From: a virus
Taxonomy: Duplodnaviria > Heunggongvirae > Uroviricota > Caudoviricetes
IMG/VR virus record: IMGVR_UViG_3300021404_000007
Coordinates: 1 to 64,000 of that record
Direction: 5' to 3' (one strand)
Length of the DNA: 64,000 nt
The notes beneath the pieces are model-generated. The model saw nothing but the letters and a program-made list of their open reading frames with translations, was not told the origin of the DNA and ran no database searches. A program made the translations under genes and the position numbers. This document shows, in pieces, positions 7,378 to 55,358 of the stretch. The first letter of the stretch is position 1, and every line of letters begins with the position of its first letter.

Positions 7378-7553
7378 CGGACTACGACTGGCACAGCTGC
7401 CCGAAGTGCGGTGGTATCTGGCGGCTCAGCCCGTCGGGACCGCACCAGGAGTGGAGCTATGCGGATTCGGTGCGCGACGCCATGCGCCACGAGCCACGGG
7501 TGTGCATCGACTGCACGCTCAAGGAGCAGGGCGGGCCGTACGGCCCGATGTAG
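7374..7553 (+). CDS. zinc-ribbon protein (CPKCGG...CIDC)
   Basis: GTGA overlap. Confidence 0.5.
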   Translation: MTDYDWHSCPKCGGIWRLSPSGPHQEWSYADSVRDAMRHEPRVCIDCTLKEQGGPYGPM

Positions 7554-7591
7554 ACCACCCGGCAGAGCGCCGGTGGGGAAAGGAGTACGCG

Positions 7592-8443
7592 ATGAAGAGC
7601 ATGTGGACTGGGATGCTGGGATTCGGAATCGTGCAGATTCCGGTGAAGCTGTTCACGGCCACCGAGAACCATGATGTGGGGTTCCACTGGCACCACGGGC
7701 CGAAGTGCCTGGGGAATGTGGGTCTGGTCAAAACCTGCAAGAAGTGCCTGAAGCCGGTGGACCCCGGCGACATCCTCTCGGGCACCGAGGTGGACGGCAA
7801 GGTGGTGTTCGTCAGCGACGAGGAGAAGGCCAGCCTGGAAGCCGCGCAATCCAAGCAGATCGAGATTCTGGAGTTCGTGGGCGCGGGCGAGATCGATCCC
7901 ATCGAGTTTGAGAACACCTACTACGTGGGCACGGCCGAGGGCGAGAAGGCGTATGCGCTGCTGGCGCAGAGCATGGGCGGACTGACGGCGCTGGCCCGCT
8001 TCACCATGCGCGGCAAGACGCGGCGGGCCGCGCTGCGCGCCGTGGTCCGCGACGACCGGCTGGTGCTGATCCTGCACACGCTGCGCTGGCCGGACGAGGT
8101 TCGGGTGCCGGAGGTGCCGGGTCTGGGCGGCGATTACAGTGCGGCCGAGCTGAGGATGGCCAAGAAGGTTGTGCAGTCGATGGTGGAGAAGTACGACCCG
8201 AACGCCCTGGTGGACACCTACCAGGAACGGCTGCAGGAGCTGGTTGCGGCCAAGGCCGAGGGCGCCGAGTTCGTGGTAGAGCCCGCAGTGGAGTTGGACG
8301 CCAGTGACGTCAAGGACGTGCTGGCGCAGCTTGAGGCGTCAATCAGGGCGCATCCGGCTGGCAGGAAGAAGGTGGCCGCGAAGGCACCGGCTAAGAAAGC
8401 ACCGGCGAAGGCGCCGGTCAAGAGAAGGAAGGCAGTGGCATGA
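7592..8443 (+). CDS. ku: Ku (non-homologous end-joining DNA-end-binding protein) with a Lys/Ala-rich C-terminal tail
   Basis: The N-terminus MKSMWTGMLGFGIVQIPVKLFTATE matches the bacterial Ku signature (MRAIWKG.ISFGLV.IPVK...ATE). There is an internal CxxC pair and a KAPAKKAPAKAPVKRRK tail. It is preceded by GGCAGAGCGCCGG plus SD. Confidence 0.85.
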   Translation: MKSMWTGMLGFGIVQIPVKLFTATENHDVGFHWHHGPKCLGNVGLVKTCKKCLKPVDPGDILSGTEVDGKVVFVSDEEKASLEAAQSKQIEILEFVGAGEIDPIEFENTYYVGTAEGEKAYALLAQSMGGLTALARFTMRGKTRRAALRAVVRDDRLVLILHTLRWPDEVRVPEVPGLGGDYSAAELRMAKKVVQSMVEKYDPNALVDTYQERLQELVAAKAEGAEFVVEPAVELDASDVKDVLAQLEASIRAHPAGRKKVAAKAPAKKAPAKAPVKRRKAVA

Positions 8444-9705: not shown

Positions 9706-9748
9706 CCGTGGACCCGGCAGAGCGCCGGTCCTAGAGAGGAGATGGCAA

Positions 9749-10057
9749 ATGACCGAGGTTCCCAAGCTGCTCCCGGAGAACCTACCGAGTAAGACCAAGG
9801 CACAGTTGATCGAGCTGTGCGAGCAGATGGCCCAGGACTGGCTGACGCTGAACGCGATCCACAACGCGCGGGCGGCCCACGCCGAATGGTGCAGCGAGTA
9901 CGAGGAGAGGCAGTACCACTACAACAAGGCGTTCAAGGTGCTGCAGCTGTTCCCTCGTAGTGCCGGGCTGCCGTTGACCGTTCTCGGGTTGTACGACTCA
10001 CGCGGTAACCCGCTGCGGCCAGGACAGTATGTCGGCGCCGCGCAGGCGAGGTTGTGA
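9749..10057 (+). CDS. hypothetical protein
   Basis: GGCAGAGCGCCGG box (9715) plus GAGGAGATGGCAAATG. The in-frame start is the second ATG. Confidence 0.55.
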   Translation: MTEVPKLLPENLPSKTKAQLIELCEQMAQDWLTLNAIHNARAAHAEWCSEYEERQYHYNKAFKVLQLFPRSAGLPLTVLGLYDSRGNPLRPGQYVGAAQARL

Positions 10058-10281: not shown

Positions 10282-10677
10282 ATGGCAATGCCGAAGAAAG
10301 TACAGCCGACAGACCCGGCCACGAAGCCGACGGTGACGCTGCTGGCAACGATGCTGACAGAGCGGATGGCCGGTGACGAGATGAAGCTGGCGATCATTCA
10401 TGAAGTGGATCGCGGCCTCATGCAGGCGCAGGCCAGCGCGCTGATCTCGTATCTGGCCACGTTCAACCTGACGCCGGAGGCGGAGAAGGCGCGGGAGAAC
10501 GACGACCCGGTGACCGAGCCCGGCTTCTACAAGCACGAGGGCAAGGAGTACGAGGTGGTCACGGCGGATGCCGGACACCTGTACCCGGTGGACGTGGAGA
10601 CCGGACGATTCGCCAAGGGGTTGTTTCCCCGGCTGCGCGCCAGCGAGCGGGTGGCCCGGCTCAAGGTGGTGGGTTGA
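10282..10677 (+). CDS. hypothetical protein (MAMPKK...)
   Basis: GGGATGGCAATG start motif. Confidence 0.55.
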   Translation: MAMPKKVQPTDPATKPTVTLLATMLTERMAGDEMKLAIIHEVDRGLMQAQASALISYLATFNLTPEAEKARENDDPVTEPGFYKHEGKEYEVVTADAGHLYPVDVETGRFAKGLFPRLRASERVARLKVVG

Positions 10678-10856
10678 TGCCCGGCGTGCTGTACGAGGTG
10701 CCGGGGGAACGTGAGTTGCTGCTGGCCAAGATCGCGCGCGAGGAGCACCGACAGGAAGGCCGGCGCGACTTCATCGTGGAGATCCAGCGGTTCATCGACA
10801 CCAAGGACCGCGAGATCGCGAACCTGCGGGCCAGGTTGGAGCAGTTGGATGGCTGA
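10677..10856 (+). CDS. hypothetical coiled-coil protein
   Basis: TGATG overlap. Confidence 0.45.
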   Translation: MPGVLYEVPGERELLLAKIAREEHRQEGRRDFIVEIQRFIDTKDREIANLRARLEQLDG

Positions 10857-11214
10857 GCATCGCAAGGCATTCGACCTCGCGGTGGCCAGCGTGATCGTGA
10901 TCAACACCGGGCTGCTGGCGTGGGCGTGGCTGGACCCGGCACGCGAGGAGATCATCGACCACATCGAAACGGTGTGCCTGGCGTTCTTCGTGGTCGAGCT
11001 GGCGCTGCGGATACGCGGCCACGGGCTGCGGTTCTTCCGCACCGGATGGGGCGTGGCCGACACGCTCATCATCGGGCTGTCGTTGCTGCCGCTGCTGGGC
11101 GTCGATGTCTCGCTGCTGCGCGTGGCGCGACTGGCGCGGGTGTTCCATCTTGGCCGACACATCACGCACCTACGCCTGCTGCGTCTGATTCCGATGACAA
11201 GGAGGTCTGTATGA
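10849..11214 (+). CDS. isolated voltage-sensor-domain-like membrane protein (ion_trans S1-S4; S4 = LRVARLARVFHLGRHITHLRLLRL)
   Basis: Four predicted TM segments. The S2-like AFFVVELALRIRG, S3-like GWGVADTLIIGLSLLPLLG and an Arg-every-third-residue S4 are present, with no pore domain. Confidence 0.5.
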   Translation: MAEHRKAFDLAVASVIVINTGLLAWAWLDPAREEIIDHIETVCLAFFVVELALRIRGHGLRFFRTGWGVADTLIIGLSLLPLLGVDVSLLRVARLARVFHLGRHITHLRLLRLIPMTRRSV

Positions 11215-11447
11215 AAGCTGAGTTGATGTCGCGCACCTGCCAAATCATGTACCTGGCAGCCGCGCTGGCGAACCTGGTGCTGTTCTTCTATTTCCATGGA
11301 GACGGCAACAACATCGCCATCGCCGTGCTGCTCGGGGTGCTCATCATGAACCAGCGGGTGGTCGACCTCTGGCGCGGCGCATCCTTCGAGTGGCGAGCAG
11401 CCGCTGAGGCGTGGCGTCACGCAGCCGAGCGGACGGGGAGAGGGTGA
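11211..11447 (+). CDS. membrane protein (78 aa, 2 TM)
   Basis: ATGA overlap. Confidence 0.5.
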   Translation: MKAELMSRTCQIMYLAAALANLVLFFYFHGDGNNIAIAVLLGVLIMNQRVVDLWRGASFEWRAAAEAWRHAAERTGRG

Positions 11448-11506
11448 AAATTCCACGTTGAAACGCAAAATCCGGAAAATCTTGAAAATTTTTGAAGGTG
11501 GGCGAA
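11448..11506 (+). promoter_or_regulatory. AT-rich island with TTCCACGTTGAA and TTGAAA repeats
   Basis: Same 12-mer as at 5831 and (inverted) 3609. Confidence 0.45.
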
Positions 11507-11668
11507 ATGAAGTATCCAACGCCATGTGACGCCTGTGGAGCGCTGGTGGGTGAAGCGTGCCGCGAAGGCTGTCCGATCGCGCAGGTGCAAACGTCGCTCG
11601 ACGTAGACATGGGATCGGCAGAGCGCCGACCCAGTGAAGGGAGAAGTCACAATGGGATGGTTTGTTGA
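11507..11668 (+). CDS. small Cys-rich protein (53 aa)
   Basis: ATG after the AT-rich island; low-confidence start. Confidence 0.3.
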   Translation: MKYPTPCDACGALVGEACREGCPIAQVQTSLDVDMGSAERRPSEGRSHNGMVC

Positions 11669-33461: not shown

Positions 33462-34364
33462 GTGTTCTACCGGGACTTGTCGGTACCTGGTGCTAACGTC
33501 AAACGCATGTCACATCCAACCATACTGCCTGGTACGCCCGAGCACTCTCGACTGATTTCACCATCCAAGATTCCCTCTATTTGCGGTATTTCCCGTTGGG
33601 AGTCTCAATACACCTGCTGGCACCGCATGAAAGGACTGCTGGACCCGAAGCCGCCGCAGGACATCTTCACCGTTGGCCTGGCGTTCGAGCCCGCGCTGGC
33701 CTACCTGTGGAAGTCGGAGAATCCCGGCTGGCGGCTCTCACCCGGTGAGGTGCAGTACGTCACCGACCGGTTCGGCTTCCCGGCCTGTGCCACCATCGAC
33801 CGGCGGGCCAGTAGGGGCAAGGCGCGCAAGGTGGTCGAGTTCAAGATCGCCCACCACACCGACGAGTGGGGCGACGTCAATCTTGAGGGCGACTGCCCGA
33901 CCGACTACGCCCTACAGGTGATGGCGCAGATGGTGCTCACCGGCCTCTACAAGCAGAACGCCGACCTGATGGTGATGGGCCCGTTCTTCAAGCACCGCAC
34001 CTACCACGTCAAGTACGACGAGGCGGTGGCCCGGTGGATGATCCAGGAGTGCCAGCGGTTCTACGCCAGCCTGGACGGTGACGTGCCGCCGGACCTGGAC
34101 GACAGCACCAGCACCTACGCGGCGGTGCGTGAGCTGCACCCGGACATCACGCCCGGCCTGAAGGTGGAGATACCCGAGGCGCTGGCGCAGGACTACCACA
34201 CCGCACACGCCGAGAGCAGTGCGGCCGAGCGCACGCTGCGCGGCCTGAAGTCGAAGATCCTGGCCACCGTCGGCAGCGCGCAGTACGTGGTGTGCAACGG
34301 CGAGGTGGTGGCCGCCCGGCAGCCGCACGCGAGGGGCGGCGTGGCGCTGGTGAGGAAGCCATGA
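33462..34364 (+). CDS. YqaJ/RecE-like PD-(D/E)XK exonuclease (alternative start ATG 33507)
   Basis: LISPSKIPSICGISRWESQYTCWHRMKG matches the YqaJ N-terminal motif. Confidence 0.65.
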   Translation: MFYRDLSVPGANVKRMSHPTILPGTPEHSRLISPSKIPSICGISRWESQYTCWHRMKGLLDPKPPQDIFTVGLAFEPALAYLWKSENPGWRLSPGEVQYVTDRFGFPACATIDRRASRGKARKVVEFKIAHHTDEWGDVNLEGDCPTDYALQVMAQMVLTGLYKQNADLMVMGPFFKHRTYHVKYDEAVARWMIQECQRFYASLDGDVPPDLDDSTSTYAAVRELHPDITPGLKVEIPEALAQDYHTAHAESSAAERTLRGLKSKILATVGSAQYVVCNGEVVAARQPHARGGVALVRKP

Positions 34365-34666
34365 GGGAGTACTACAACACCAACCGGGAGAGCGGGGACA
34401 CGCTGGCCACCAGTGTCACCCAGGCACGCAACCAGCGGCTCACCATCCTGGCGTTCTTCGAGCGCCACCCGGACACCCTCTTTGCGCCGCACGAGATACA
34501 GCGCCGGGTGTTGCCCACCGCGCCTCTCACGTCGGTGCGCCGGGCCATGACGAACCTGACCGAGGAGGGCCGGTTGGAGAAGACCCACGAGATGGAGCGC
34601 GGCAGCTACGGGAAGCAGGTACACCGCTGGCGGCTGCGCCAGGAGGAGTCCGAGTACCTGTGGTGA
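34361..34666 (+). CDS. winged-HTH DNA-binding protein
   Basis: ATGA overlap; between the exonuclease and RecT. Confidence 0.5.
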   Translation: MREYYNTNRESGDTLATSVTQARNQRLTILAFFERHPDTLFAPHEIQRRVLPTAPLTSVRRAMTNLTEEGRLEKTHEMERGSYGKQVHRWRLRQEESEYLW

Positions 34667-34824
34667 TTAGCACTCTGCGTTGGCGGCTGCCAAGTTCTAT
34701 GAGTTTTGTAGGTAACGACCGGATTACGGGCGTAGGTTCTCACTACCTCGACCTGTTTACCTGGTCGTCGCCCATTAAAAAACGTCACCGCATACGGCGG
34801 TGGAGTGAGAAAGGGTGATGAACA

Positions 34825-35784
34825 GTGTCAGAGAACACCACATCGGAAGTGGCGCCTGTTAGCCAGGAGCCCGAGTTTACCGTTGCTGAAATTACCGAGC
34901 CGACCACCGGCGCACTGCGCCGGCTGGAAGCCGAAGTGGCCGCGCTGGACAAGGCGTACCACTGGGCCAAGGCGATGAGTAAGACCACGATGGTGCCCGA
35001 GCACTTCCAGTACAACCACAAGCCACGGGGTTGCACGGACCCGCTGGGCGAGGTAGCTACCTACAACCTGGCCGCGGCGGTCATGTACGGCATCGAGATC
35101 GGCCTGTCTGCCATGCAGGCCGCGCAGAACGTCTTTGTCGTGCACGGCAAGCCCGCCGTCTACGCCCGCACGATGGCCGCACAGGTGCGTGCCGCCGGGT
35201 ACGTCATCGAGCCGGTGGAGGAATCCGACGAGCGGTGCGTGTGGAAGGGGCTGCGCGACGGCACCTGGGCCTTCTCGGAATGGAGCATCGAGCGCGCCGC
35301 GCAGGCGGGTTACACCGCCAACGAGCGGTACACGAAGAACCCGCAGGAGATGTTGCGCGCCAAGTGCATTGCCGAGGTGTGCCGCATCAAGTACCAGGAC
35401 GTGCTGCTGGGCATGGCGTACAGCGTGGAGGAGTTGCAGCTCGAAGAGTCCACCGTGCAGCGGGTGGTTCGCCAAGGCCCACGCGGCACCTCCGCGCTAC
35501 GTCAGCTGGCCTCGATGAGCAATGACATAGCCGCCGCGCCCGAACCTGCCGCTGGCCCAGAGCCCGAGACTGAGCCAGCGCCAGAGGGCAACGCGCCGAG
35601 CAGTGAGCAGCTTATCGAAATCCGCAAGCTCTACAAGGCCAAGGGCTTCACGGGGCAGGCCATGCTGGACGAGCTGACGCAGTACCTGCAGCGCGAGGCG
35701 CCCATCACCAGGCTCACGTTCCTCACCTTTGACGAGGCTGCCGACGTGATCGCGCACCTGACCGAGCCGGTGGCAGATGCGTAA
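34825..35784 (+). CDS. recT: RecT-family single-strand annealing protein
   Basis: 319 aa. The RecT-like core sits next to the exonuclease, as in the Che9c gp60/61 arrangement. Confidence 0.6.
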   Translation: MSENTTSEVAPVSQEPEFTVAEITEPTTGALRRLEAEVAALDKAYHWAKAMSKTTMVPEHFQYNHKPRGCTDPLGEVATYNLAAAVMYGIEIGLSAMQAAQNVFVVHGKPAVYARTMAAQVRAAGYVIEPVEESDERCVWKGLRDGTWAFSEWSIERAAQAGYTANERYTKNPQEMLRAKCIAEVCRIKYQDVLLGMAYSVEELQLEESTVQRVVRQGPRGTSALRQLASMSNDIAAAPEPAAGPEPETEPAPEGNAPSSEQLIEIRKLYKAKGFTGQAMLDELTQYLQREAPITRLTFLTFDEAADVIAHLTEPVADA

Positions 35785-43245: not shown

Positions 43246-43803
43246 CTAGGCCTCCATGTGCAGCTGCTGAATCAGCGAGATCTCGTACGGTTGCAGGTGC
43301 CCGCGGGTCGCCACTGTAGTCGTCATGGTGGCCGGCGACTTGACCCCGCGCAGCTTCATGCACGAGTGCTCGGCGGTGATTAGACAGGTGGCCCCGGACG
43401 GAGACAGCATGTGCATGAGGGAGTCCACCACCTGCTGCCCGATCCGCTCCTGCACCTGTAGCCGGGCGGCGTAGGCGTAGACCAGCCGGGTGAGCTTGGA
43501 CAGGCCGACGATGCGCTGGCCGGTGTGCGGGCGGTAGGCGACGGTGGCGCGGCCGAGGATGGGCAGCAGATGGTGCGCGCACGTGCTCTGTACGTCTATA
43601 CCCGCCTGGACGATGAGCCCCGGATCGCGCGGCGCCGGAAATGTCGTCTGAAGGTAATCCTCTGGATTCTCCTGGTAGCCCCAAAGCTGGTCCTTGAGCG
43701 ACTTGGCCACGCGAGCAGGAGTGTCGGCGGTGTGCTCGCCCTCGTCGACCCCCAGCGCGTCGAGAAGGAGCTTGACCGCGCTCTTGACGTCATCGGTTTC
43801 CAC
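43246..43803 (-). CDS. folE: GTP cyclohydrolase I (FolE)
   Basis: CAHHLLP active-site motif; T-fold size (185 aa). Confidence 0.7.
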   Translation of the reverse strand: METDDVKSAVKLLLDALGVDEGEHTADTPARVAKSLKDQLWGYQENPEDYLQTTFPAPRDPGLIVQAGIDVQSTCAHHLLPILGRATVAYRPHTGQRIVGLSKLTRLVYAYAARLQVQERIGQQVVDSLMHMLSPSGATCLITAEHSCMKLRGVKSPATMTTTVATRGHLQPYEISLIQQLHMEA

Positions 43804-44284
43804 AACGCATCTCCTGGTCCGCGTCGTTGTGCGTGAACAGTTGGTTGCGCTTGGTCACCGCCGCCAGCTCGGCGGCTCCCTTACTGGCGTACCGGCCGAG
43901 GTAGTAGGTGTGGTGGTTGTGCCGCACCACCGCCTCCCACGCTCCCCGGTGCCACCGCACGCCCCGGACCTGTGAGCGGCTGTTGCGCCGCTCCCCGGCC
44001 AGGTTCTCCATGTTCTGCTTGTGCGTCACCGGCCGCAGGTGGTCCGGGTTCACGCAGATCTTCGGGCAGTGCCGGTGGTGGTCCACCAGTCCGGTCGGCG
44101 GTGCGCCGTGCACGAAGGCCCAGGCGTTGCGGTGCGCCTGCCAGGTGCCGAACACCCGGTTGTCGAACTTCCCGTAGCCGCGGCCATCCACGCACGCCGT
44201 CCACAGCCAGCATCGGGTTCCCAGCACCGGGTTGATCGGACCCTGCTTGTTCACCTTCGCCCAGAACCGTTCGGCCGGTGTCAC
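43790..44284 (-). CDS. HNH homing endonuclease with an AP2 DNA-binding domain
   Basis: CWLWT..GYGKF...HHRHCPKICVNPDHL; GVRWHRGAWEAVV. Confidence 0.65.
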   Translation of the reverse strand: MTPAERFWAKVNKQGPINPVLGTRCWLWTACVDGRGYGKFDNRVFGTWQAHRNAWAFVHGAPPTGLVDHHRHCPKICVNPDHLRPVTHKQNMENLAGERRNSRSQVRGVRWHRGAWEAVVRHNHHTYYLGRYASKGAAELAAVTKRNQLFTHNDADQEMRCGNR

Positions 44285-44348
44285 GGCGCCCGCCCGTGTA
44301 ACGTCGCGCCGGTGATCCGTTGGCTGCGTTCCCTTTTCGACTCCACCA

Positions 44349-45056
44349 TCAGGTTCCTCGTTGGTCGCCGAACGCCAGTATTTGCAGCCGGTGCGAGCAG
44401 TTCACCCGTAGCCGGATCGATTCCTCGACAATGGCGCCGAATGACTCCTGGAGGTGAGCGGTGTCGGTACCTTCCGGCATCATCCAGACATTCCACCTTG
44501 GCCAGCCGTGCCGGTCGGCCAGCGACACGGCTTCTTTGACGTCCTGTGCGTTGCGCACCACGAACTTCAGGCAGGTGAACCGCAGCTTGATGTGCTGCGG
44601 CCACTCGGCCAGCTCGGGATTCTGGCCCGGCTTGTGCGTGGTGTTGGAGAGCTTGGGCGAGATGGAGTAGTGCCGGACGAACGTCTGCGTAGCCTCGCTC
44701 GGCGCCAGCGTGCCGTTGGTTTCCACCGAGATGAACTTGTCCTTGCCCGCCAGTGCGCGCAGCAGCACCTCCCACTCCGGATTCTTCTGGTGCATCAGCG
44801 GCTCGCCGCCGGTCAGGATGACCTCGTTGACCTCCGGGTCCACCAGCCGCACGATGCTGGCCGGGCTCATCCGGGTGATCTCCTCTTTCAGGTCGTAGAA
44901 GCGGGAGTCCCAGGTGTATGCCGAGTCGCAGACCCAGCCGCCCGCGTAGCCGCAGGAGAGGTTGCAGCCGCCGAAGCGGATGAACGCGCACAGGCGGCCG
45001 GCGCGCGGCCCCTCGCCCTGGATGCTGGTGAACGCCTCCACCACCGGCAGCGTCAT
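44349..45056 (-). CDS. queE: 7-carboxy-7-deazaguanine synthase QueE (radical SAM)
   Basis: FGGCNLSCGYAGGWVCD Cys cluster; 235 aa. Confidence 0.7.
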   Translation of the reverse strand: MTLPVVEAFTSIQGEGPRAGRLCAFIRFGGCNLSCGYAGGWVCDSAYTWDSRFYDLKEEITRMSPASIVRLVDPEVNEVILTGGEPLMHQKNPEWEVLLRALAGKDKFISVETNGTLAPSEATQTFVRHYSISPKLSNTTHKPGQNPELAEWPQHIKLRFTCLKFVVRNAQDVKEAVSLADRHGWPRWNVWMMPEGTDTAHLQESFGAIVEESIRLRVNCSHRLQILAFGDQRGT

Positions 45057-45511
45057 GTGCCCGCACCCGTCAGCACGACGTGCGGCAGCGGCCCGGAGTC
45101 GGATATCGACGGGAACCAGGTGGCCGTGTTGTCCGGCCCCTCCCGCAGCTCGACCGAGAGCAGCGGCGCCTTGGGCAGCGCGCGTCGGCTGTGCTTGGCG
45201 ATCTCGGCGGCGATGGCCTCGGTGGTGGGCTGCCCGATCAGCGCGTAGTACTTCAGCTTCCCGGCGCGCAGGTAGCCGATGAACTCGTCCTCGCGGTCGA
45301 TGATGAACCCGTGGTCGAACAGCGTGGCGATCATCGCGCGCAGCTTCTCTTTGACGGCGCCGAACTCCAGCGGGTCGCCGACATCCTGGGCGTAGGTCCA
45401 GGTGACGTGGAAGGTATGGCCGTGGATATTACGACATTTGGCGCCCGGCCCGGTGAGCCCGAGGATGCGATGCCCGGCGGCGAAGTGGGTACGTACCGAA
45501 ATGGTGCTCAT
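45053..45511 (-). CDS. queD: 6-carboxy-5,6,7,8-tetrahydropterin synthase QueD
   Basis: FAAGHRI...GKCRNIHGH motif; ATGA overlaps on both sides. Confidence 0.7.
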   Translation of the reverse strand: MSTISVRTHFAAGHRILGLTGPGAKCRNIHGHTFHVTWTYAQDVGDPLEFGAVKEKLRAMIATLFDHGFIIDREDEFIGYLRAGKLKYYALIGQPTTEAIAAEIAKHSRRALPKAPLLSVELREGPDNTATWFPSISDSGPLPHVVLTGAGT

Positions 45512-46413
45512 GAGTACACCTGCTCTCCCCGTGCCAGCTTGGCCACGGTCTCGATGTGCTGCGGATGGCCGTCCACCAGGTACAGGATCGGGCCGGTGAA
45601 ATCCTCTGCCCAGCCGCCGAGGCGACCCCACTTGGGCGACGGCACCGGGTTGTGCCGGTGGAAGTAGCGCAGCTGCTGCTCCTGCACGCTGGCCGAGAGC
45701 GCCGATAGCCGCACCATCATCAGCCGGTTGTGCGGTGCGCTGGTGGAGACTTCGCTCGGGTTCACCCCGTAGTGATCGCGCAGCAGGCACGCGATGTCCT
45801 GGCTGTAGGTGCCGCGCCCGTTCAGGTCGATGCTGTGCACCTTGCCCTGCCGCTGCGGGTCGCGCAGGTGCAGCCGCCCGTAGCGGTAGCTGGACCCCCA
45901 GCCGGAGGAGTCCACACTGAAGAACGGCAGCCGCAGGTGGCTCTTGTTGGCCAGCCCCCAGCCGTGGAACCGGACGTGCGGGTGGTTGTCCCGCGCGTAC
46001 TTGAAGCAGGCCACCATCCACCGGAACTTCTCCTGGATGCCCGCGTCGACCAGCGCCATGCCGCCCAGCCCGATGAAGTCCACGCCGCGCTCGACGTAGT
46101 AGTCCATGGTTTCCGGCCGCTCGCGCAGGTGGATGGTGGGTACACCGGGGATACCGGCGTCCACCATCTCGTTCCAGTTGTACTTGCTCGTCTCGGCGTT
46201 GCCGGTGATGTCGAGGCTGGCGATCCACGAGATGCGGTGGTGGTACATCTGCGCCCACGTCACCAGGTTCCTCGTCTCCACCGGCTTGCCCAGCGTGCGC
46301 AGGCTGACGGCGCCGGAGTCGGCGGCGATCCGGCACGGGGCCAGCCTGTCCAGGTCGTACTTGTGGTAGTACGCGAAGGACACCAGCAGGTTGCGCGGCG
46401 GTGCGATGGTCAC
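45508..46413 (-). CDS. dpdA: DpdA-like 7-deazaguanine DNA transglycosylase (TGT family)
   Basis: TGT-like fold, IAADSGAV and VDFIGLGGMA; position in the preQ0 operon; GTGA overlap. Confidence 0.55.
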   Translation of the reverse strand: MTIAPPRNLLVSFAYYHKYDLDRLAPCRIAADSGAVSLRTLGKPVETRNLVTWAQMYHHRISWIASLDITGNAETSKYNWNEMVDAGIPGVPTIHLRERPETMDYYVERGVDFIGLGGMALVDAGIQEKFRWMVACFKYARDNHPHVRFHGWGLANKSHLRLPFFSVDSSGWGSSYRYGRLHLRDPQRQGKVHSIDLNGRGTYSQDIACLLRDHYGVNPSEVSTSAPHNRLMMVRLSALSASVQEQQLRYFHRHNPVPSPKWGRLGGWAEDFTGPILYLVDGHPQHIETVAKLARGEQVYS

Positions 46414-46760
46414 GGTATCGCCCAGCTGATGTCGTCCGGCAGGTGCAGGTCGTCGGGCAGGTCCACGTCCTTGCGCCCGCTGATCACCACCGTGCCGTAG
46501 AAGTGCACCCAGCCGTTCACCGGCTCCGTGCGCCCGCTGGGGTTCAGTTCGTGCCACAGCTTGGTCGCGGTGTCGTTGCGCGGCGGCATTGCGCCACTCC
46601 AGATGTGGGTGTACCAGAACAGCACGTTGCCCACCTCGGTGCTGGCGCTGTCCAGGTCGGCGCCGATGATGCCCTGTAGCCGCTGCACGAAGCCGGTCAG
46701 GTCGAAGGGCTGCACCTCCAACGGACCGAGAATGGGGTGGATCACCAGCGCCAGCATCAT
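46410..46760 (-). CDS. hypothetical protein (116 aa) in the deazaguanine operon
   Basis: ATGA overlap with the GT gene. Confidence 0.5.
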   Translation of the reverse strand: MMLALVIHPILGPLEVQPFDLTGFVQRLQGIIGADLDSASTEVGNVLFWYTHIWSGAMPPRNDTATKLWHELNPSGRTEPVNGWVHFYGTVVISGRKDVDLPDDLHLPDDISWAIP

Positions 46761-47386
46761 CGCTTCAGCAGCTCGCGCATGACCTCGGGCTTGCCGTAGG
46801 CGAACTGGTACAACTTCCAGCGGCTGCGGGTGGTGGCCGCGGTGGGTTCCCTGTCGTTCTCGTGGTCGAACGACCAGGCGATGCCCTCCACCCGTTCCAC
46901 CGCCGCCAGTGTCTCGGCGGCTGCCTTGAACGCCTTGTCCTCGTAGCCCCACACCGCGCCGAAGCGCTCGTCGTAGCCGCCCAGCCACCAGAACAGATCG
47001 GACGCGCACACCAGGATGCCGCCGGCCGCGTCGTACTTGGTGAAGCACGGTTCCACCACGTACAGGTCGTCCAGGTCGTAGGCCACCGCCTCGGCTGGCA
47101 TCGCCCGGTAGCGGGTGAAGGGGTAGACCACGGCACCGCCGTTGGCCAGGTCCACCGCCCGCCGCAGCGCGGGCATCTCACACACCGTGTCGGCGTCCGC
47201 GATGATGACGATTTCCGCCGCCGCCGACTTCACCGCGTTGTTGCGCGCCTGGCTGCGGTGGAAGGGCTGCGTGGGTTCGCTGTCGCCGAGGTAGACCGGG
47301 TAGTCTGCCCAGAACTCCATGGCGCGGTAGAAGGCGGGCAGCCGGGTGGGCTGCGCCCGCCACGGGATGCAGACGGCAACCCGCAT
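46757..47386 (-). CDS. GT-A fold glycosyltransferase (GT2/GT7-like; DxD ADADT; WGYEDKAF)
   Basis: 209 aa; TGATG overlap with the ParB-like gene. Confidence 0.5.
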   Translation of the reverse strand: MRVAVCIPWRAQPTRLPAFYRAMEFWADYPVYLGDSEPTQPFHRSQARNNAVKSAAAEIVIIADADTVCEMPALRRAVDLANGGAVVYPFTRYRAMPAEAVAYDLDDLYVVEPCFTKYDAAGGILVCASDLFWWLGGYDERFGAVWGYEDKAFKAAAETLAAVERVEGIAWSFDHENDREPTAATTRSRWKLYQFAYGKPEVMRELLKR

Positions 47387-47955
47387 CAGATGCCCAGCAG
47401 GGCGTTCATCGCCGTGGTGTCGTTCTCGAACTCGTCCCGGTGCTTCTTCCACGCCGCCAGCGTCGGGGTGTCCACCACCAGCAGCAGGCGGCTCATGAAG
47501 TCCTCGTCGCCCAGCGGGCCACCCGCTTCGTTCTCCAACTCGTCCAGGTCCGGCGCACCGGCCAGCATCTCCTGCAGCATCTGCACGTAGTCCTCGTCGA
47601 AGCCGGTGCCTTCCAGGGTGTCGATCTTGAGCAACACCTCCAGCAGGGCTTCCATGTCCGGGCCGGGGCCAAGCTCGGCAATCCTGTTGTCCGCCAACAG
47701 GATCTTGCGTGCGCTCGTCTCGTCGGCATCCACCATGTCCACCCGTAGTGTCTTGAGTTTGAGGCCCTTGGCCGCCTGCCAGACGTGGTGCCCGGCCAGG
47801 ATGGTGCCGTCCTTGTTGACCACCACGCTGCGGTACTGGCCGTGCTGTTCCAGGCTCTCGGTAATGGCGTTCACGTCGCCACGGTTCGGGTTCTCCGGGT
47901 GTGGATGCAGCTTGCCGACAGGCATTTCCTTCTGGCCCATGAATGTGACTGTCAC
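47386..47955 (-). CDS. ParB-like nuclease-domain protein (possible DpdB analogue)
   Basis: HPHPENPNRGD ParB/Srx box. Confidence 0.55.
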   Translation of the reverse strand: MTVTFMGQKEMPVGKLHPHPENPNRGDVNAITESLEQHGQYRSVVVNKDGTILAGHHVWQAAKGLKLKTLRVDMVDADETSARKILLADNRIAELGPGPDMEALLEVLLKIDTLEGTGFDEDYVQMLQEMLAGAPDLDELENEAGGPLGDEDFMSRLLLVVDTPTLAAWKKHRDEFENDTTAMNALLGI

Positions 47956-53500: not shown

Positions 53501-53904
53501 CGCCGTCGTCCGATCACGCCGTCCTTGTCGAGGTCCACGCCGGTCACGTCCTCGGCGGTGGCCGTGTTCGATGTCAGCCACACCGCGATGGGCGTGATGA
53601 AGGCGATGGACACGGTGATGATGTGCGCCACGTTCTCCGGCCAGAAGTCCTGGCCGAGCAGGGTGTTGAGAATAATGAGCGCACCGCCGGCAATCGCGGT
53701 GACGGCCTTCCAGGAGGTGGCGATCACCAGCTGCCACTTCGAGGGTGGCTTCTCGTCCTCGTCCTCCTTGGGTACGGGCACCGGTGCTGGAGCCGGTGCC
53801 CGTCCACCGGGCGGACGGTAGCCCGGTTGGTCCTCCGGCCGGTCCGACTCATACGGCCCCGGCTGGTAGCTGGGCGGCGGGATGCCGCGTATCGGGGAAC
53901 CCAT
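53497..53904 (-). CDS. holin-like protein (Pro-rich N-terminus plus 2 C-terminal TM), immediately downstream of lysin A
   Basis: TGATG overlap with lysA. Confidence 0.45.
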   Translation of the reverse strand: MGSPIRGIPPPSYQPGPYESDRPEDQPGYRPPGGRAPAPAPVPVPKEDEDEKPPSKWQLVIATSWKAVTAIAGGALIILNTLLGQDFWPENVAHIITVSIAFITPIAVWLTSNTATAEDVTGVDLDKDGVIGRRR

Positions 53905-55358
53905 CAGCGTGGCGGGGTTCGGGGGAACTTGGAGGTGATGCTCTGAGTCGGCTTGTACTGCTCCGGGATCAGCGAGTAGACGTGCGCGGCCCACTCGTTA
54001 CCGGCGTCGACCTGCTGCTGGATCAGGGCAATGGCGCTCTGGTCGCCGATCATGGCGCGGTGCTCGATGAACATGGTGTGCACCATGCCGTCGTCGTTCC
54101 ACCACAGGTCGGCGGCAGCCCAGATCGCGCCCTCGCTGGGCGGCTTGTACTCGGACAGCGACACCCGCTTGCCGTAGATCGCGTCCCACACCGCGAGCAG
54201 CTTGTCGTGCTCCTCCTGGGTGAGTCCCGGCCCGGCCGGACCTGGCTCGGGTGGTACCGGCGTCGGGGTGGGCGGGGTCGGGGTGGGCACACCGGAGGGT
54301 GCCATCGCGCACAGGTAGCCCTTGGGCGGGATCAGGGTGGCCACCTGATCGAAGCTGCACCAGTACTCAAACGGGTTGAACCCGGAGTCGGCGATCCAGC
54401 AGGCCCGCTGGCTGGGGTTGTCGTCGTAGCCCATGCAGGACACGTAGTGGTAGACCACGCCGCCGCCGTAGCTCGGGCTGGTCGAGCCCTTGATGCCGCG
54501 TGGGTAGTTGGCCGGTGGCGCGACCCAGTTCATCACCAGCCCGTAGCCGCCGTTGATGCTGTTGGTCAGGTCGGCCCACAGCTTGTCCTTCTGCTGCTGG
54601 GTGGGCGGGTCCTGTTGTAGCCAGGTGGTCGCGTACTGCCCGTCCGGCAGGTACTTCTTCATCACCGGGGTGATCTGGTCGATGCTGTCGGTGCCGCCCT
54701 CGTGCGTGCCGATCTGATTCACCAGGTCCATCTCGGACACGATGATGCCGTGGCCGTTGAGGACGATCTGCGCGGCTGCCGGGCCGCAGTCCCAGTACGT
54801 CTCCTGCGGCACCACGCTGCTGTCGTACGGCAATACCACTTCACCCACGAGTTCCCCTCCTCCTTCACCATCAGGCGGGGCACCGCCGTCGCCGCAGTTG
54901 CCCGGCTCGGCCGGGCACGGCGCGTCCTTCAGCCTGGCGTAGTAGTCCTGGGCCTCCGGGTACCGCTCGTCGTAGCGCGCCGGGTAGGCGCTGCGCTGCA
55001 CCATGTCGGCCCAGCCGCCGGGGGTGGTCGCGTCGGTGTTGTAGTCCTGGTCGCCGATGCGCTGGTTGACCAGGCTGTCGTAGAACAGGCCGGCACTCTG
55101 CGCCGGGTCCATGCGTTGCGCGCAGGTGCCCCACCATTCGGCGCGCTGCTGGAAGACGCCCACGCTGTTGTAGTCGCTGCCCATGGCGTCGTATGGAAAG
55201 GTCAGGCTCTCCGGGTCGCCCTGGTTGGCGTACATCGTCAGGTTGGACTCCACCAGGCCAGTCGCTATGGCGATCTGGATGCCCTTCTGAGTGATGCCGC
55301 GGCGCTTACCCTCATGGATGATCGCAATGGCGATCCCGTCCTTGGTGTAATACGCCAC
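53904..55358 (-). CDS. lysA: lysin A (endolysin): N-terminal glycosidase-like, central C39-like Cys peptidase (YWDCGPAAAQIVL), C-terminal wall-binding region
   Basis: Multi-domain architecture typical of mycobacteriophage LysA; GTG start. Confidence 0.65.
   Translation of the reverse strand: MAYYTKDGIAIAIIHEGKRRGITQKGIQIAIATGLVESNLTMYANQGDPESLTFPYDAMGSDYNSVGVFQQRAEWWGTCAQRMDPAQSAGLFYDSLVNQRIGDQDYNTDATTPGGWADMVQRSAYPARYDERYPEAQDYYARLKDAPCPAEPGNCGDGGAPPDGEGGGELVGEVVLPYDSSVVPQETYWDCGPAAAQIVLNGHGIIVSEMDLVNQIGTHEGGTDSIDQITPVMKKYLPDGQYATTWLQQDPPTQQQKDKLWADLTNSINGGYGLVMNWVAPPANYPRGIKGSTSPSYGGGVVYHYVSCMGYDDNPSQRACWIADSGFNPFEYWCSFDQVATLIPPKGYLCAMAPSGVPTPTPPTPTPVPPEPGPAGPGLTQEEHDKLLAVWDAIYGKRVSLSEYKPPSEGAIWAAADLWWNDDGMVHTMFIEHRAMIGDQSAIALIQQQVDAGNEWAAHVYSLIPEQYKPTQSITSKFPRTPPR

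Follow-up and report, generated by a model that had tools for sequence, protein, structure and literature searches.

A 64,000-nucleotide stretch of a mycobacteriophage-like tailed-phage genome (positions 1 to 64,000 of IMG/VR record IMGVR_UViG_3300021404_000007, Caudoviricetes; hereafter the window) encodes a small membrane protein that we show here to be a genuine, selectively maintained stand-alone voltage-sensor domain (VSD). It consists of the four helices S1–S4 and is cut just after S4 of a VSD of the actinobacterial BacNaV type. Its relatives form a coherent family of proteins of ~115–160 residues, most of which are carried by phages, prophage-like regions or conjugative-type elements of Mycobacterium-like Actinobacteria. 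The identity of the protein as a VSD is essentially certain, and we hold both this identity and the existence of the family with very high confidence. The most informative feature of the protein is an invariant histidine at the fourth gating position of S4 (R4), which suggests, by analogy with other voltage sensors, a voltage-gated proton path. Pore-less VSDs (Hv1, VSP/TPTE, TMEM266) have been held to be eukaryotic inventions; the present family is a coherent, selected one from the prokaryotic mobilome that arose independently and is marked by its characteristic His residues.

The Pfam profile Ion_trans (PF00520) matched the protein with 58.5 bits against a cutoff of 25 (E = 7.5e-16), over profile positions 2–117 of 241, which is the S1–S4 half only. 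An initial annotation, made from the sequence alone, had named the absence of any ion_trans or VSD profile match as the result that would speak against a voltage sensor; with this match, that objection clearly falls. The best sequence matches in the PDB were the voltage sensors of NavMs (E = 3e-14, channel residues 15–121), followed by eukaryotic Nav/Cav repeats and NavAb. The NavMs alignment pairs N19 with the S1 Asn, D71 with the S3 Asp and R91/R94/R97/H100 with R1–R4, while F47 and E50 match the F and E within the NavMs segment 'IFIVEISLKI'. In an AlphaFold2 model built on 86 family sequences, the fold was likewise that of a VSD, the top Foldseek neighbors being the VSDs of NavMs and NavAb (TMq 0.57–0.72, probability 1.0). 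The structural comparison with Hv1 and Ci-VSP that the initial annotation had proposed returned VSDs as the only neighbors, those two among them. Its idea of an Hv1- or VSP-like protein does not hold for descent, since the origin lies in actinobacterial BacNaV-type channels instead.

The lack of an S5-P-S6 pore, also part of the initial annotation, is borne out by the short tail (the protein stops 21 residues past H100), by the end of the PF00520 match midway through the profile, and by a hidden Markov model (HMM) of the actinobacterial BacNaV pore domain, which found nothing in the six-frame translated window or in any VSD locus and did detect the control channel (L030; L numbers denote loci and P numbers proteins). 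No second Pfam domain was found within the 121 residues, and longer members of the family still match just the VSD half of Ion_trans. We also considered a split channel, with sensor and pore as separate genes. The downstream open reading frame (ORF), which encodes two hydrophobic segments, has a 6-residue loop between them and no P-loop, and it matched neither Pfam, BacNaV nor the pore-domain HMM; a split channel was therefore rejected.

The four transmembrane segments expected from the initial annotation appear in the model as helices at residues 2–28, 30–61, 66–83 and 88–107, and in the hydropathy profile as three maxima (around residues 18, 48 and 78) together with an amphipathic S4. The loop charges match the canonical N-in topology of VSDs, and the three peptides quoted earlier as S2-like, S3-like and S4 each occur verbatim in the protein. 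The hydrophobic constriction is formed by I16, F47 and I75 and the inner acidic pair by E50 and D71, and there are three Arg gating charges. In S4 the register reads R91-R94-R97-H100-R103-(T106)-R109-R112. The description of S4 as having Arg at every third position is thus right as to the basic periodicity and wrong as to its being all Arg, the fourth position being His. This periodicity is just modestly unusual, with at least five basic residues at spacing 3 in 981 of 100,000 shuffled sequences (~1%), and the case for a VSD is therefore made on homology instead. H100, H104 and H107 (i, i+4, i+7) share one helix face.

A first search recovered 8 short homologs of 104–144 residues. An exhaustive hmmsearch of 1.84 billion representative sequences placed ~70 proteins of 99–250 residues among its best 150 matches, where they were mixed only with four-repeat eukaryotic channels, whose scores add up four domains. 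In a profile search of a 5.8-billion-protein collection, ~85 short clusters were listed (80–232 residues, 104–182 bits), and these outranked all full-length BacNaV channels (271–332 residues, at most 104 bits, with PF08016 and PF00520). The ~85 VSD-only clusters derive solely from metagenomes and metagenome-assembled genomes (MAGs). In the 86-sequence alignment F47, E50, D71, P81 and R91 are invariant (86/86), and I16 (78/86), N19 (79/86), F62, G84, L90, A93, R94, A96, R97, H100, R103, H104 and R109 are each conserved in at least 90% of the sequences. H100 is present in 84 of the 86; the two exceptions, P0226 and P0227, are truncated genuine channels with a channel-type linker.

The family S4 signature is LLRVARLARxxHLxRHxxHLR, and the nearest full-length channels have LLRLARLARVVRVVRLLPDLR at this place. 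Among the full-length relatives, the pattern located S4 in 28, and 27 of these have Arg at R4. As the nearest full-length channels carry R, L and D at the three His positions, the changes R4 to His, L to His and D to His are derived characters of the family. Pairwise ratios of nonsynonymous to synonymous substitution rates (dN/dS) within the family were 0.15–0.47, indicating purifying selection. Together, the derived residues, the conservation and the dN/dS values show that the family is a selected lineage from actinobacterial BacNaV sensors rather than a set of broken genes. A functionless, decaying remnant of a captured sodium-channel gene would resemble a truncated channel as this protein does, and automatic pipelines do name it 'voltage-gated sodium channel', as on a 100,945-bp JGI/ENA contig that carries the identical protein. 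However, the same truncated architecture recurs in ~85 clusters across different contexts, functional residues are invariant, dN/dS stays below 0.5, the gene has its own ribosome-binding site and translational coupling, and the family-specific derived residues are unseen in channels. The conservation effectively refutes decay.

By sequence and by fold, BacNaV channels (NavMs, NavAb and the actinobacterial P0229, P0239 and P0253) are the closest known proteins, at ~30% identity to NavMs and 40–50% over the aligned portions to the actinobacterial channels. They share with the phage protein the S1 Asn, the S2 Phe/Glu, the S3 Asp, R1–R3 and a short S3–S4 loop. Unlike them, the phage protein lacks both the S5-P-S6 part and a C-terminal coiled coil, is found on mobile elements, has His at R4, and carries two more His in place of the L and D of the 'LLPDLR' linker; with no pore and an R4 that is not Arg, it does not belong to BacNaV itself. 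The identity to actinobacterial-type sensors raises the thought of a decoy or dominant-negative subunit, a free VSD that binds host voltage-gated channels or other VSD-binding proteins and disables them during host takeover, and docking on the pore domains of such channels is conceivable. In a channel tetramer, though, the VSDs are covalently tethered and domain-swapped, which leaves no vacant site for a free VSD, and the family-specific His triad would go unexplained. To our knowledge, moreover, mycobacteria lack BacNaV channels. We consider a decoy very improbable.

What the His at R4 might do is suggested by several precedents. In activated BacNaV channels R4 is paired with the inner Glu/Asp, level with the constriction or slightly beneath it (PMC13095418, NavAb). 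In histidine scanning of Shaker and Ci-VSP (gating-pore or omega currents), replacement of Arg by His at S4 gating positions creates a voltage-dependent proton carrier or pore when the residue sits in the hydrophobic constriction (PMC13095418). Human TPTE has a natural S4 His, H207, that is essential for its depolarization-activated H+ current (Sutton et al. 2012, as summarized in PMC10651576 and PMC13095418), and a His put into zebrafish Dr-VSP reproduces the TPTE-type proton current (PMC10651576). The isolated Shaker VSD conducts cations (PMC10651576). Given these precedents and the invariant R4 His, we propose that the phage protein may act as a depolarization-activated proton shuttle.

As long as the host membrane is at its strongly negative resting potential, S4 would be down and the protein silent. 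Upon depolarization S4 would move outward and H100 would enter the constriction between E50/D71 and F47, where, judging from the residues and the precedents, it could shuttle protons between the inner and outer water crevices. R103 would then occupy the inner acidic site, and H104 and H107 might prolong the relay to the cytoplasm or add pH sensitivity. By positive feedback, a partial or transient depolarization could become a sustained loss of the proton motive force (PMF) and lock the cell in a de-energized state, a 'PMF fuse'. A BacNaV-derived VSD acting as such a depolarization-activated His proton path is the best explanation we have for the data as a whole, and we put its chances at a little under even. 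Proton conduction as such, argued by analogy, we hold tentatively and regard as quite possible.

The resemblance to known pore-less sensors is partial. TPTE/VSP proteins have a PTEN-like phosphatase domain that the phage protein lacks, and as TPTE is eukaryotic, its His and that of the phage VSD arose independently; H100 was assigned to R4 by the NavMs alignment, and its positional equivalence to TPTE H207 is putative. Hv1 has a Trp in its RxWRxxR S4 motif that is absent from the phage protein, whose S4 is SLLRVARLARVFHLGRH; a 2023 review reports this Trp absent from prokaryotic S1–S4 segments. Hv1 also has a mid-S1 Asp; in the phage protein the conserved polar residue of S1 is Asn19 (79/86 in the family), with no Asp in mid-S1, and its equivalence to the Hv1 position is putative. 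The coiled-coil dimerization tail of Hv1 is missing as well, with ~9 low-confidence residues after the last helix of the phage protein, and Hv1 conducts via an Asp-Arg selectivity filter, not via His. The Shaker and Ci-VSP mutants would share the same chemistry of His at a gating position, but they are laboratory mutants of full channels or enzymes, while the phage His is natural, invariant and part of a minimal protein. The miniature K+ channel Kcv of chloroviruses is likewise virus-encoded and likewise a single module out of the voltage-gated channel design (PMC12332018), but there the module is the pore, carried by eukaryotic viruses, whereas the bacteriophage protein is the complementary sensor.

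The genomic contexts of the family, of which ~16 were examined, were all but one phage-like, prophage-like or conjugative-type. In phage-like small-gene arrays (the window, L001, L002, L010 and L024/L025) a Ku gene lies 0–2.4 kb upstream of the VSD gene. In L027, L029, L032 and L033 the VSD gene directly follows, and often overlaps, an ArdC-N antirestriction-type gene; a 31-codon ORF stands in front of this ArdC-N/VSD module in L027, L032 and L033 but not in L029, and L027 is the sole locus with a TrwC relaxase, 2.5 kb downstream of the module. From this position among early or establishment genes (Ku, ArdC-N), the simplest reading of its biology would be the exclusion of competing DNA or an abortive switch. 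Loss of membrane potential slows the entry of further phage genomes, and, more speculatively, the element may use the protein to keep out competing DNA whose entry depends on the PMF (superinfection or entry exclusion, abortive infection). Alternatively, it might sharpen PMF-dependent timing events. We have less confidence in any specific biological role than in proton conduction. The fullest version of the proposal, that actinobacterial phages and conjugative-type elements evolved a minimal (~120 residues) voltage-gated proton conduit, convergent with Hv1 and TPTE, as a PMF-collapsing switch that excludes competing DNA or commits the cell, we regard as doubtful.

Small multi-transmembrane phage proteins such as lambda RexB and the holins and pinholins dissipate the membrane potential for exclusion or lysis timing. 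Their likeness to the VSD protein is one of function only, with no relation in sequence or structure (PADLOC, PHROG, BFVD), and none has a canonical S4. Holins are triggered by membrane de-energization, and a holin-, pinholin- or antiholin-like element that senses the drop in potential could speed or synchronize this triggering; a small multi-transmembrane phage protein would suit such a lysis timer, and a depolarization-activated proton leak would behave in an all-or-none manner. The BFVD structures held no family member, the best neighbor being a Gordonia phage holin at a non-significant E of 1.4 (TM 0.43), and PHROG gave only a weak match to a family of unknown function (E = 0.038) and none to lysis families. 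The gene lies among early-type small genes near Ku, far from lysin A and on the opposite strand. Other members stand beside ArdC-N (in one locus with the TrwC relaxase) on conjugative-type elements, which do not lyse cells. On balance a lysis timer appears improbable.

Several points weigh against the proposed PMF fuse. The case for proton conduction is drawn entirely from one conserved residue and from analogy, and a neutral or titratable residue at R4 could merely tune the voltage range or the pH dependence without conduction. A protein that collapses the PMF early would harm the phage's own replication unless tightly gated, and the VSD gene is ~43 kb from the lysis cassette. Confidence in the model is moderate (mean pLDDT 67.7) and weaker in S4 (53–62 over residues 81–110). 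The L031 site looks chromosomal, without obvious mobile-element genes. The protein matched no known defense or exclusion model in PADLOC, and NCBIfam gave no match either. Finally, fusions of the VSD to an extra transmembrane helix and a DUF732 domain fit the logic of a sensor with an effector better than that of a channel.

The last point leads to the main rival explanation, a non-conducting voltage (possibly pH or metal) sensor that steers a partner in trans via the linker-like helix R103-H104-x-x-H107-L-R109. Candidate partners would include the coiled-coil protein encoded upstream, envelope proteins of the DUF732 type and membrane enzymes of the host. Such a sensor would resemble VSPs, which couple S4 to an effector through a linker; the retained tail corresponds to the start of the S4–S5 linker, which couples VSDs to effectors in channels, and it is conserved like S4 itself (R103, H104 and R109). 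The spacing of H100, H104 and H107 would also suit a Zn2+ or pH-sensing site. One family member, P0175, consists of the VSD, a fifth transmembrane helix and a Pfam-confirmed extracytoplasmic DUF732 domain, and separate DUF732 genes lie near the VSD gene in L015 (2912–3397), L024 (2832–3260) and L033 (8623–9018). The recurrence of DUF732, a mycobacterial envelope domain, hints at a functional link to the sensor. Several other members have a similar extra-transmembrane extension, without Pfam confirmation.

The upstream ORF encodes a coiled-coil-like protein of 60 residues that is kept, and translationally coupled to the VSD gene, in three phage lineages, and its product is a possible partner of the VSD, as judged from gene arrangement. 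In the window, L003, L006 and L024, the ORF that directly precedes the VSD gene encodes a shared C-terminal motif, '(D)REIANLRA', and the 59-residue ORF of the window received no Pfam or PHROG assignment. There is, however, no universal partner: L001 and the ArdC-linked loci lack the upstream ORF or have another in its place, and the downstream genes differ from lineage to lineage. The downstream gene for the protein with two hydrophobic segments was rejected as a conserved partner, being limited to the 98%-identical relatives L003–L005, with unrelated genes in its place in other lineages. A non-conducting sensor would also leave the invariant His specifically at R4 unexplained. We consider it somewhat unlikely, yet the alternative to be taken most seriously.

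If the proton path is real, prokaryotes and their viruses would have in this protein their first known stand-alone voltage sensor and also their first known voltage-gated proton path. The proposed mechanism, if correct, would offer a natural voltage-gated proton conductance for bacterial electrophysiology and a new way for phages to read or reset the energization of the host membrane. The protein would then also provide structural and gating studies with one of the smallest VSDs found in nature, and synthetic biology with a compact bacterial voltage-sensing part. Even if it does not conduct, a sensor-only protein implies that phages and conjugative-type elements monitor the membrane potential of their hosts.

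To our searches of the literature, VSD-only proteins of prokaryotes or phages were new, no description being found, and a 2023 review states, on the basis of database searches, that prokaryotic VSDs all come joined to a pore and that bacteria and archaea have no Hv-type channel. In reference collections, a hand-built degenerate DNA pattern (R.AR.AR..H..RH..HLR) gave 17 matches in 185,579 species-representative genomes, of which 4 were true, all in Mycobacterium or Actinomycetota MAGs; as the pattern recognizes ~37% of family members, this count is a lower bound. An alignment-based scan of IMG/VR gave 57 pattern matches and none confirmed, and tblastn of PLSDB with an ArdC-linked member returned only full-length 'ion transporter' genes. 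No family member was found by tblastn, with the protein and the family consensus, in 50,697 GenBank phage records. The statement of the initial annotation that such domains are essentially undescribed in phages therefore agrees with GenBank phages, IMG/VR, BFVD and the review. The sole GenBank phage match, MT835812, lies outside the family: it is a full-length channel of 234 residues whose S4 has four Arg. This BacNaV-like channel (L030, MT835812.1 16494–17198) lies on a human-fecal scaffold named 'UNVERIFIED Bacteriophage sp.', next to an ORF for a multi-transmembrane membrane protein; the scaffold may be bacterial rather than phage DNA.

The coordinates of the VSD gene, its segments and other features are given in Table 1. 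The bounds of the ORF in the initial annotation were exact, and its length of 122 residues had counted the stop codon. A GGAG sequence is found at 10838–10841, 7 nt 5' of the ATG, and third-position GC in the ORF enclosing the VSD is ~0.8, typical for real genes of the window. The ATGA coupling to a small protein with two hydrophobic segments, proposed earlier, was likewise confirmed.

Table 1. Positions of the VSD gene, its segments and other features. Positions refer to the window unless another locus is named.
Feature	Position	Strand	Remarks
VSD gene (121-aa stand-alone voltage-sensor domain, S1–S4 plus short S4–S5-linker-like tail)	10849..11214	+	ORF call; ATG start, 121 codons, TGA stop
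S1, ~residues 7–28	10867..10932	+	I16 (hydrophobic constriction), N19; model helix 2–28
S2, ~residues 37–58	10957..11022	+	F47 (charge-transfer-centre Phe), E50 (intracellular negative cluster)
S3, ~residues 66–83	11044..11097	+	D71 (intracellular negative cluster), I75, P81
S4 and linker-like helix, ~residues 88–112	11110..11184	+	R91, R94, R97, H100, R103, H104, H107, R109, R112
Codon CAT, His100 (R4 position of S4)	11146..11148	+	read from sequence
Upstream ORF, 59/60 aa, coiled-coil-like	10674/10677..10856	+	overlaps VSD start by 8 nt
Downstream ORF, 78 aa, two hydrophobic segments	11211..11447	+	ATGA overlap with VSD stop; AGGAGG in front
Ku-like DNA-end-binding gene	7406..8443	+	PHROG 4873, E = 1.7e-61
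RecE/RecT recombination pair	33462–35784	+	
GTP cyclohydrolase	43246–43803	-	7-deazaguanine (queuosine-type) DNA-modification cluster, 43246–46557
QueE-like radical SAM protein	44349–45056	-	7-deazaguanine cluster
DpdA/TGT-like transglycosylase	45508–46557	-	7-deazaguanine cluster
ParB-like protein	47386–47955	-	
LysA	53904–55358	opposite to VSD gene	~43 kb from VSD gene
ArdC-N/VSD module, L027	8677–10351		ArdC-N followed by VSD
ArdC-N/VSD module, L032	7100–8420		ArdC-N followed by VSD
ArdC-N/VSD module, L033	6879–8408		ArdC-N followed by VSD
ArdC-N/VSD module, L029	721–1934		ArdC-N followed by VSD

Right after the downstream gene, at 11448–11530, there is a strongly AT-rich intergenic stretch (gaaaattccacgttgaaacgcaaaatccggaaaatcttgaaaatttttgaagg) amid a genome of 66% GC, possibly a promoter or another regulatory element; in L003, a close relative, a gene call runs through the equivalent region. 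A small protein with the motif 'MAQDW..LNAIHN..W CSEYEERQ' is encoded upstream of the VSD gene in the window (9746–10057) and downstream of it in L006 (1058–1285), which points to local gene shuffling around a conserved neighborhood. In L010, a 525-kb Actinomycetota MAG contig, a CRISPR-like array (427–1709; 18 repeats of ~37 nt at 71–74-nt spacing) adjoins the Ku-VSD gene pair at its 3' end, with a slight overlap, and the C-terminal tail of the annotated 227-residue VSD protein P0171 of this locus consists in part of translated repeat.

The window itself is that of a phage, with minor tail proteins, lysin A, Ku, RecE/RecT, a ParB-like protein and a 7-deazaguanine cluster. Megablast searches of GenBank phages with the VSD region and with 24 kb of the window gave no relevant match, and the phage is thus new at the DNA level. 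Its lysin A is 48–56% identical to that of Mycobacterium phages, and its Ku shares ~35% identity with that of Cluster-J-type mycobacteriophages, Omega among them. Given the gene content of the 7-deazaguanine cluster, the phage probably hypermodifies its DNA.

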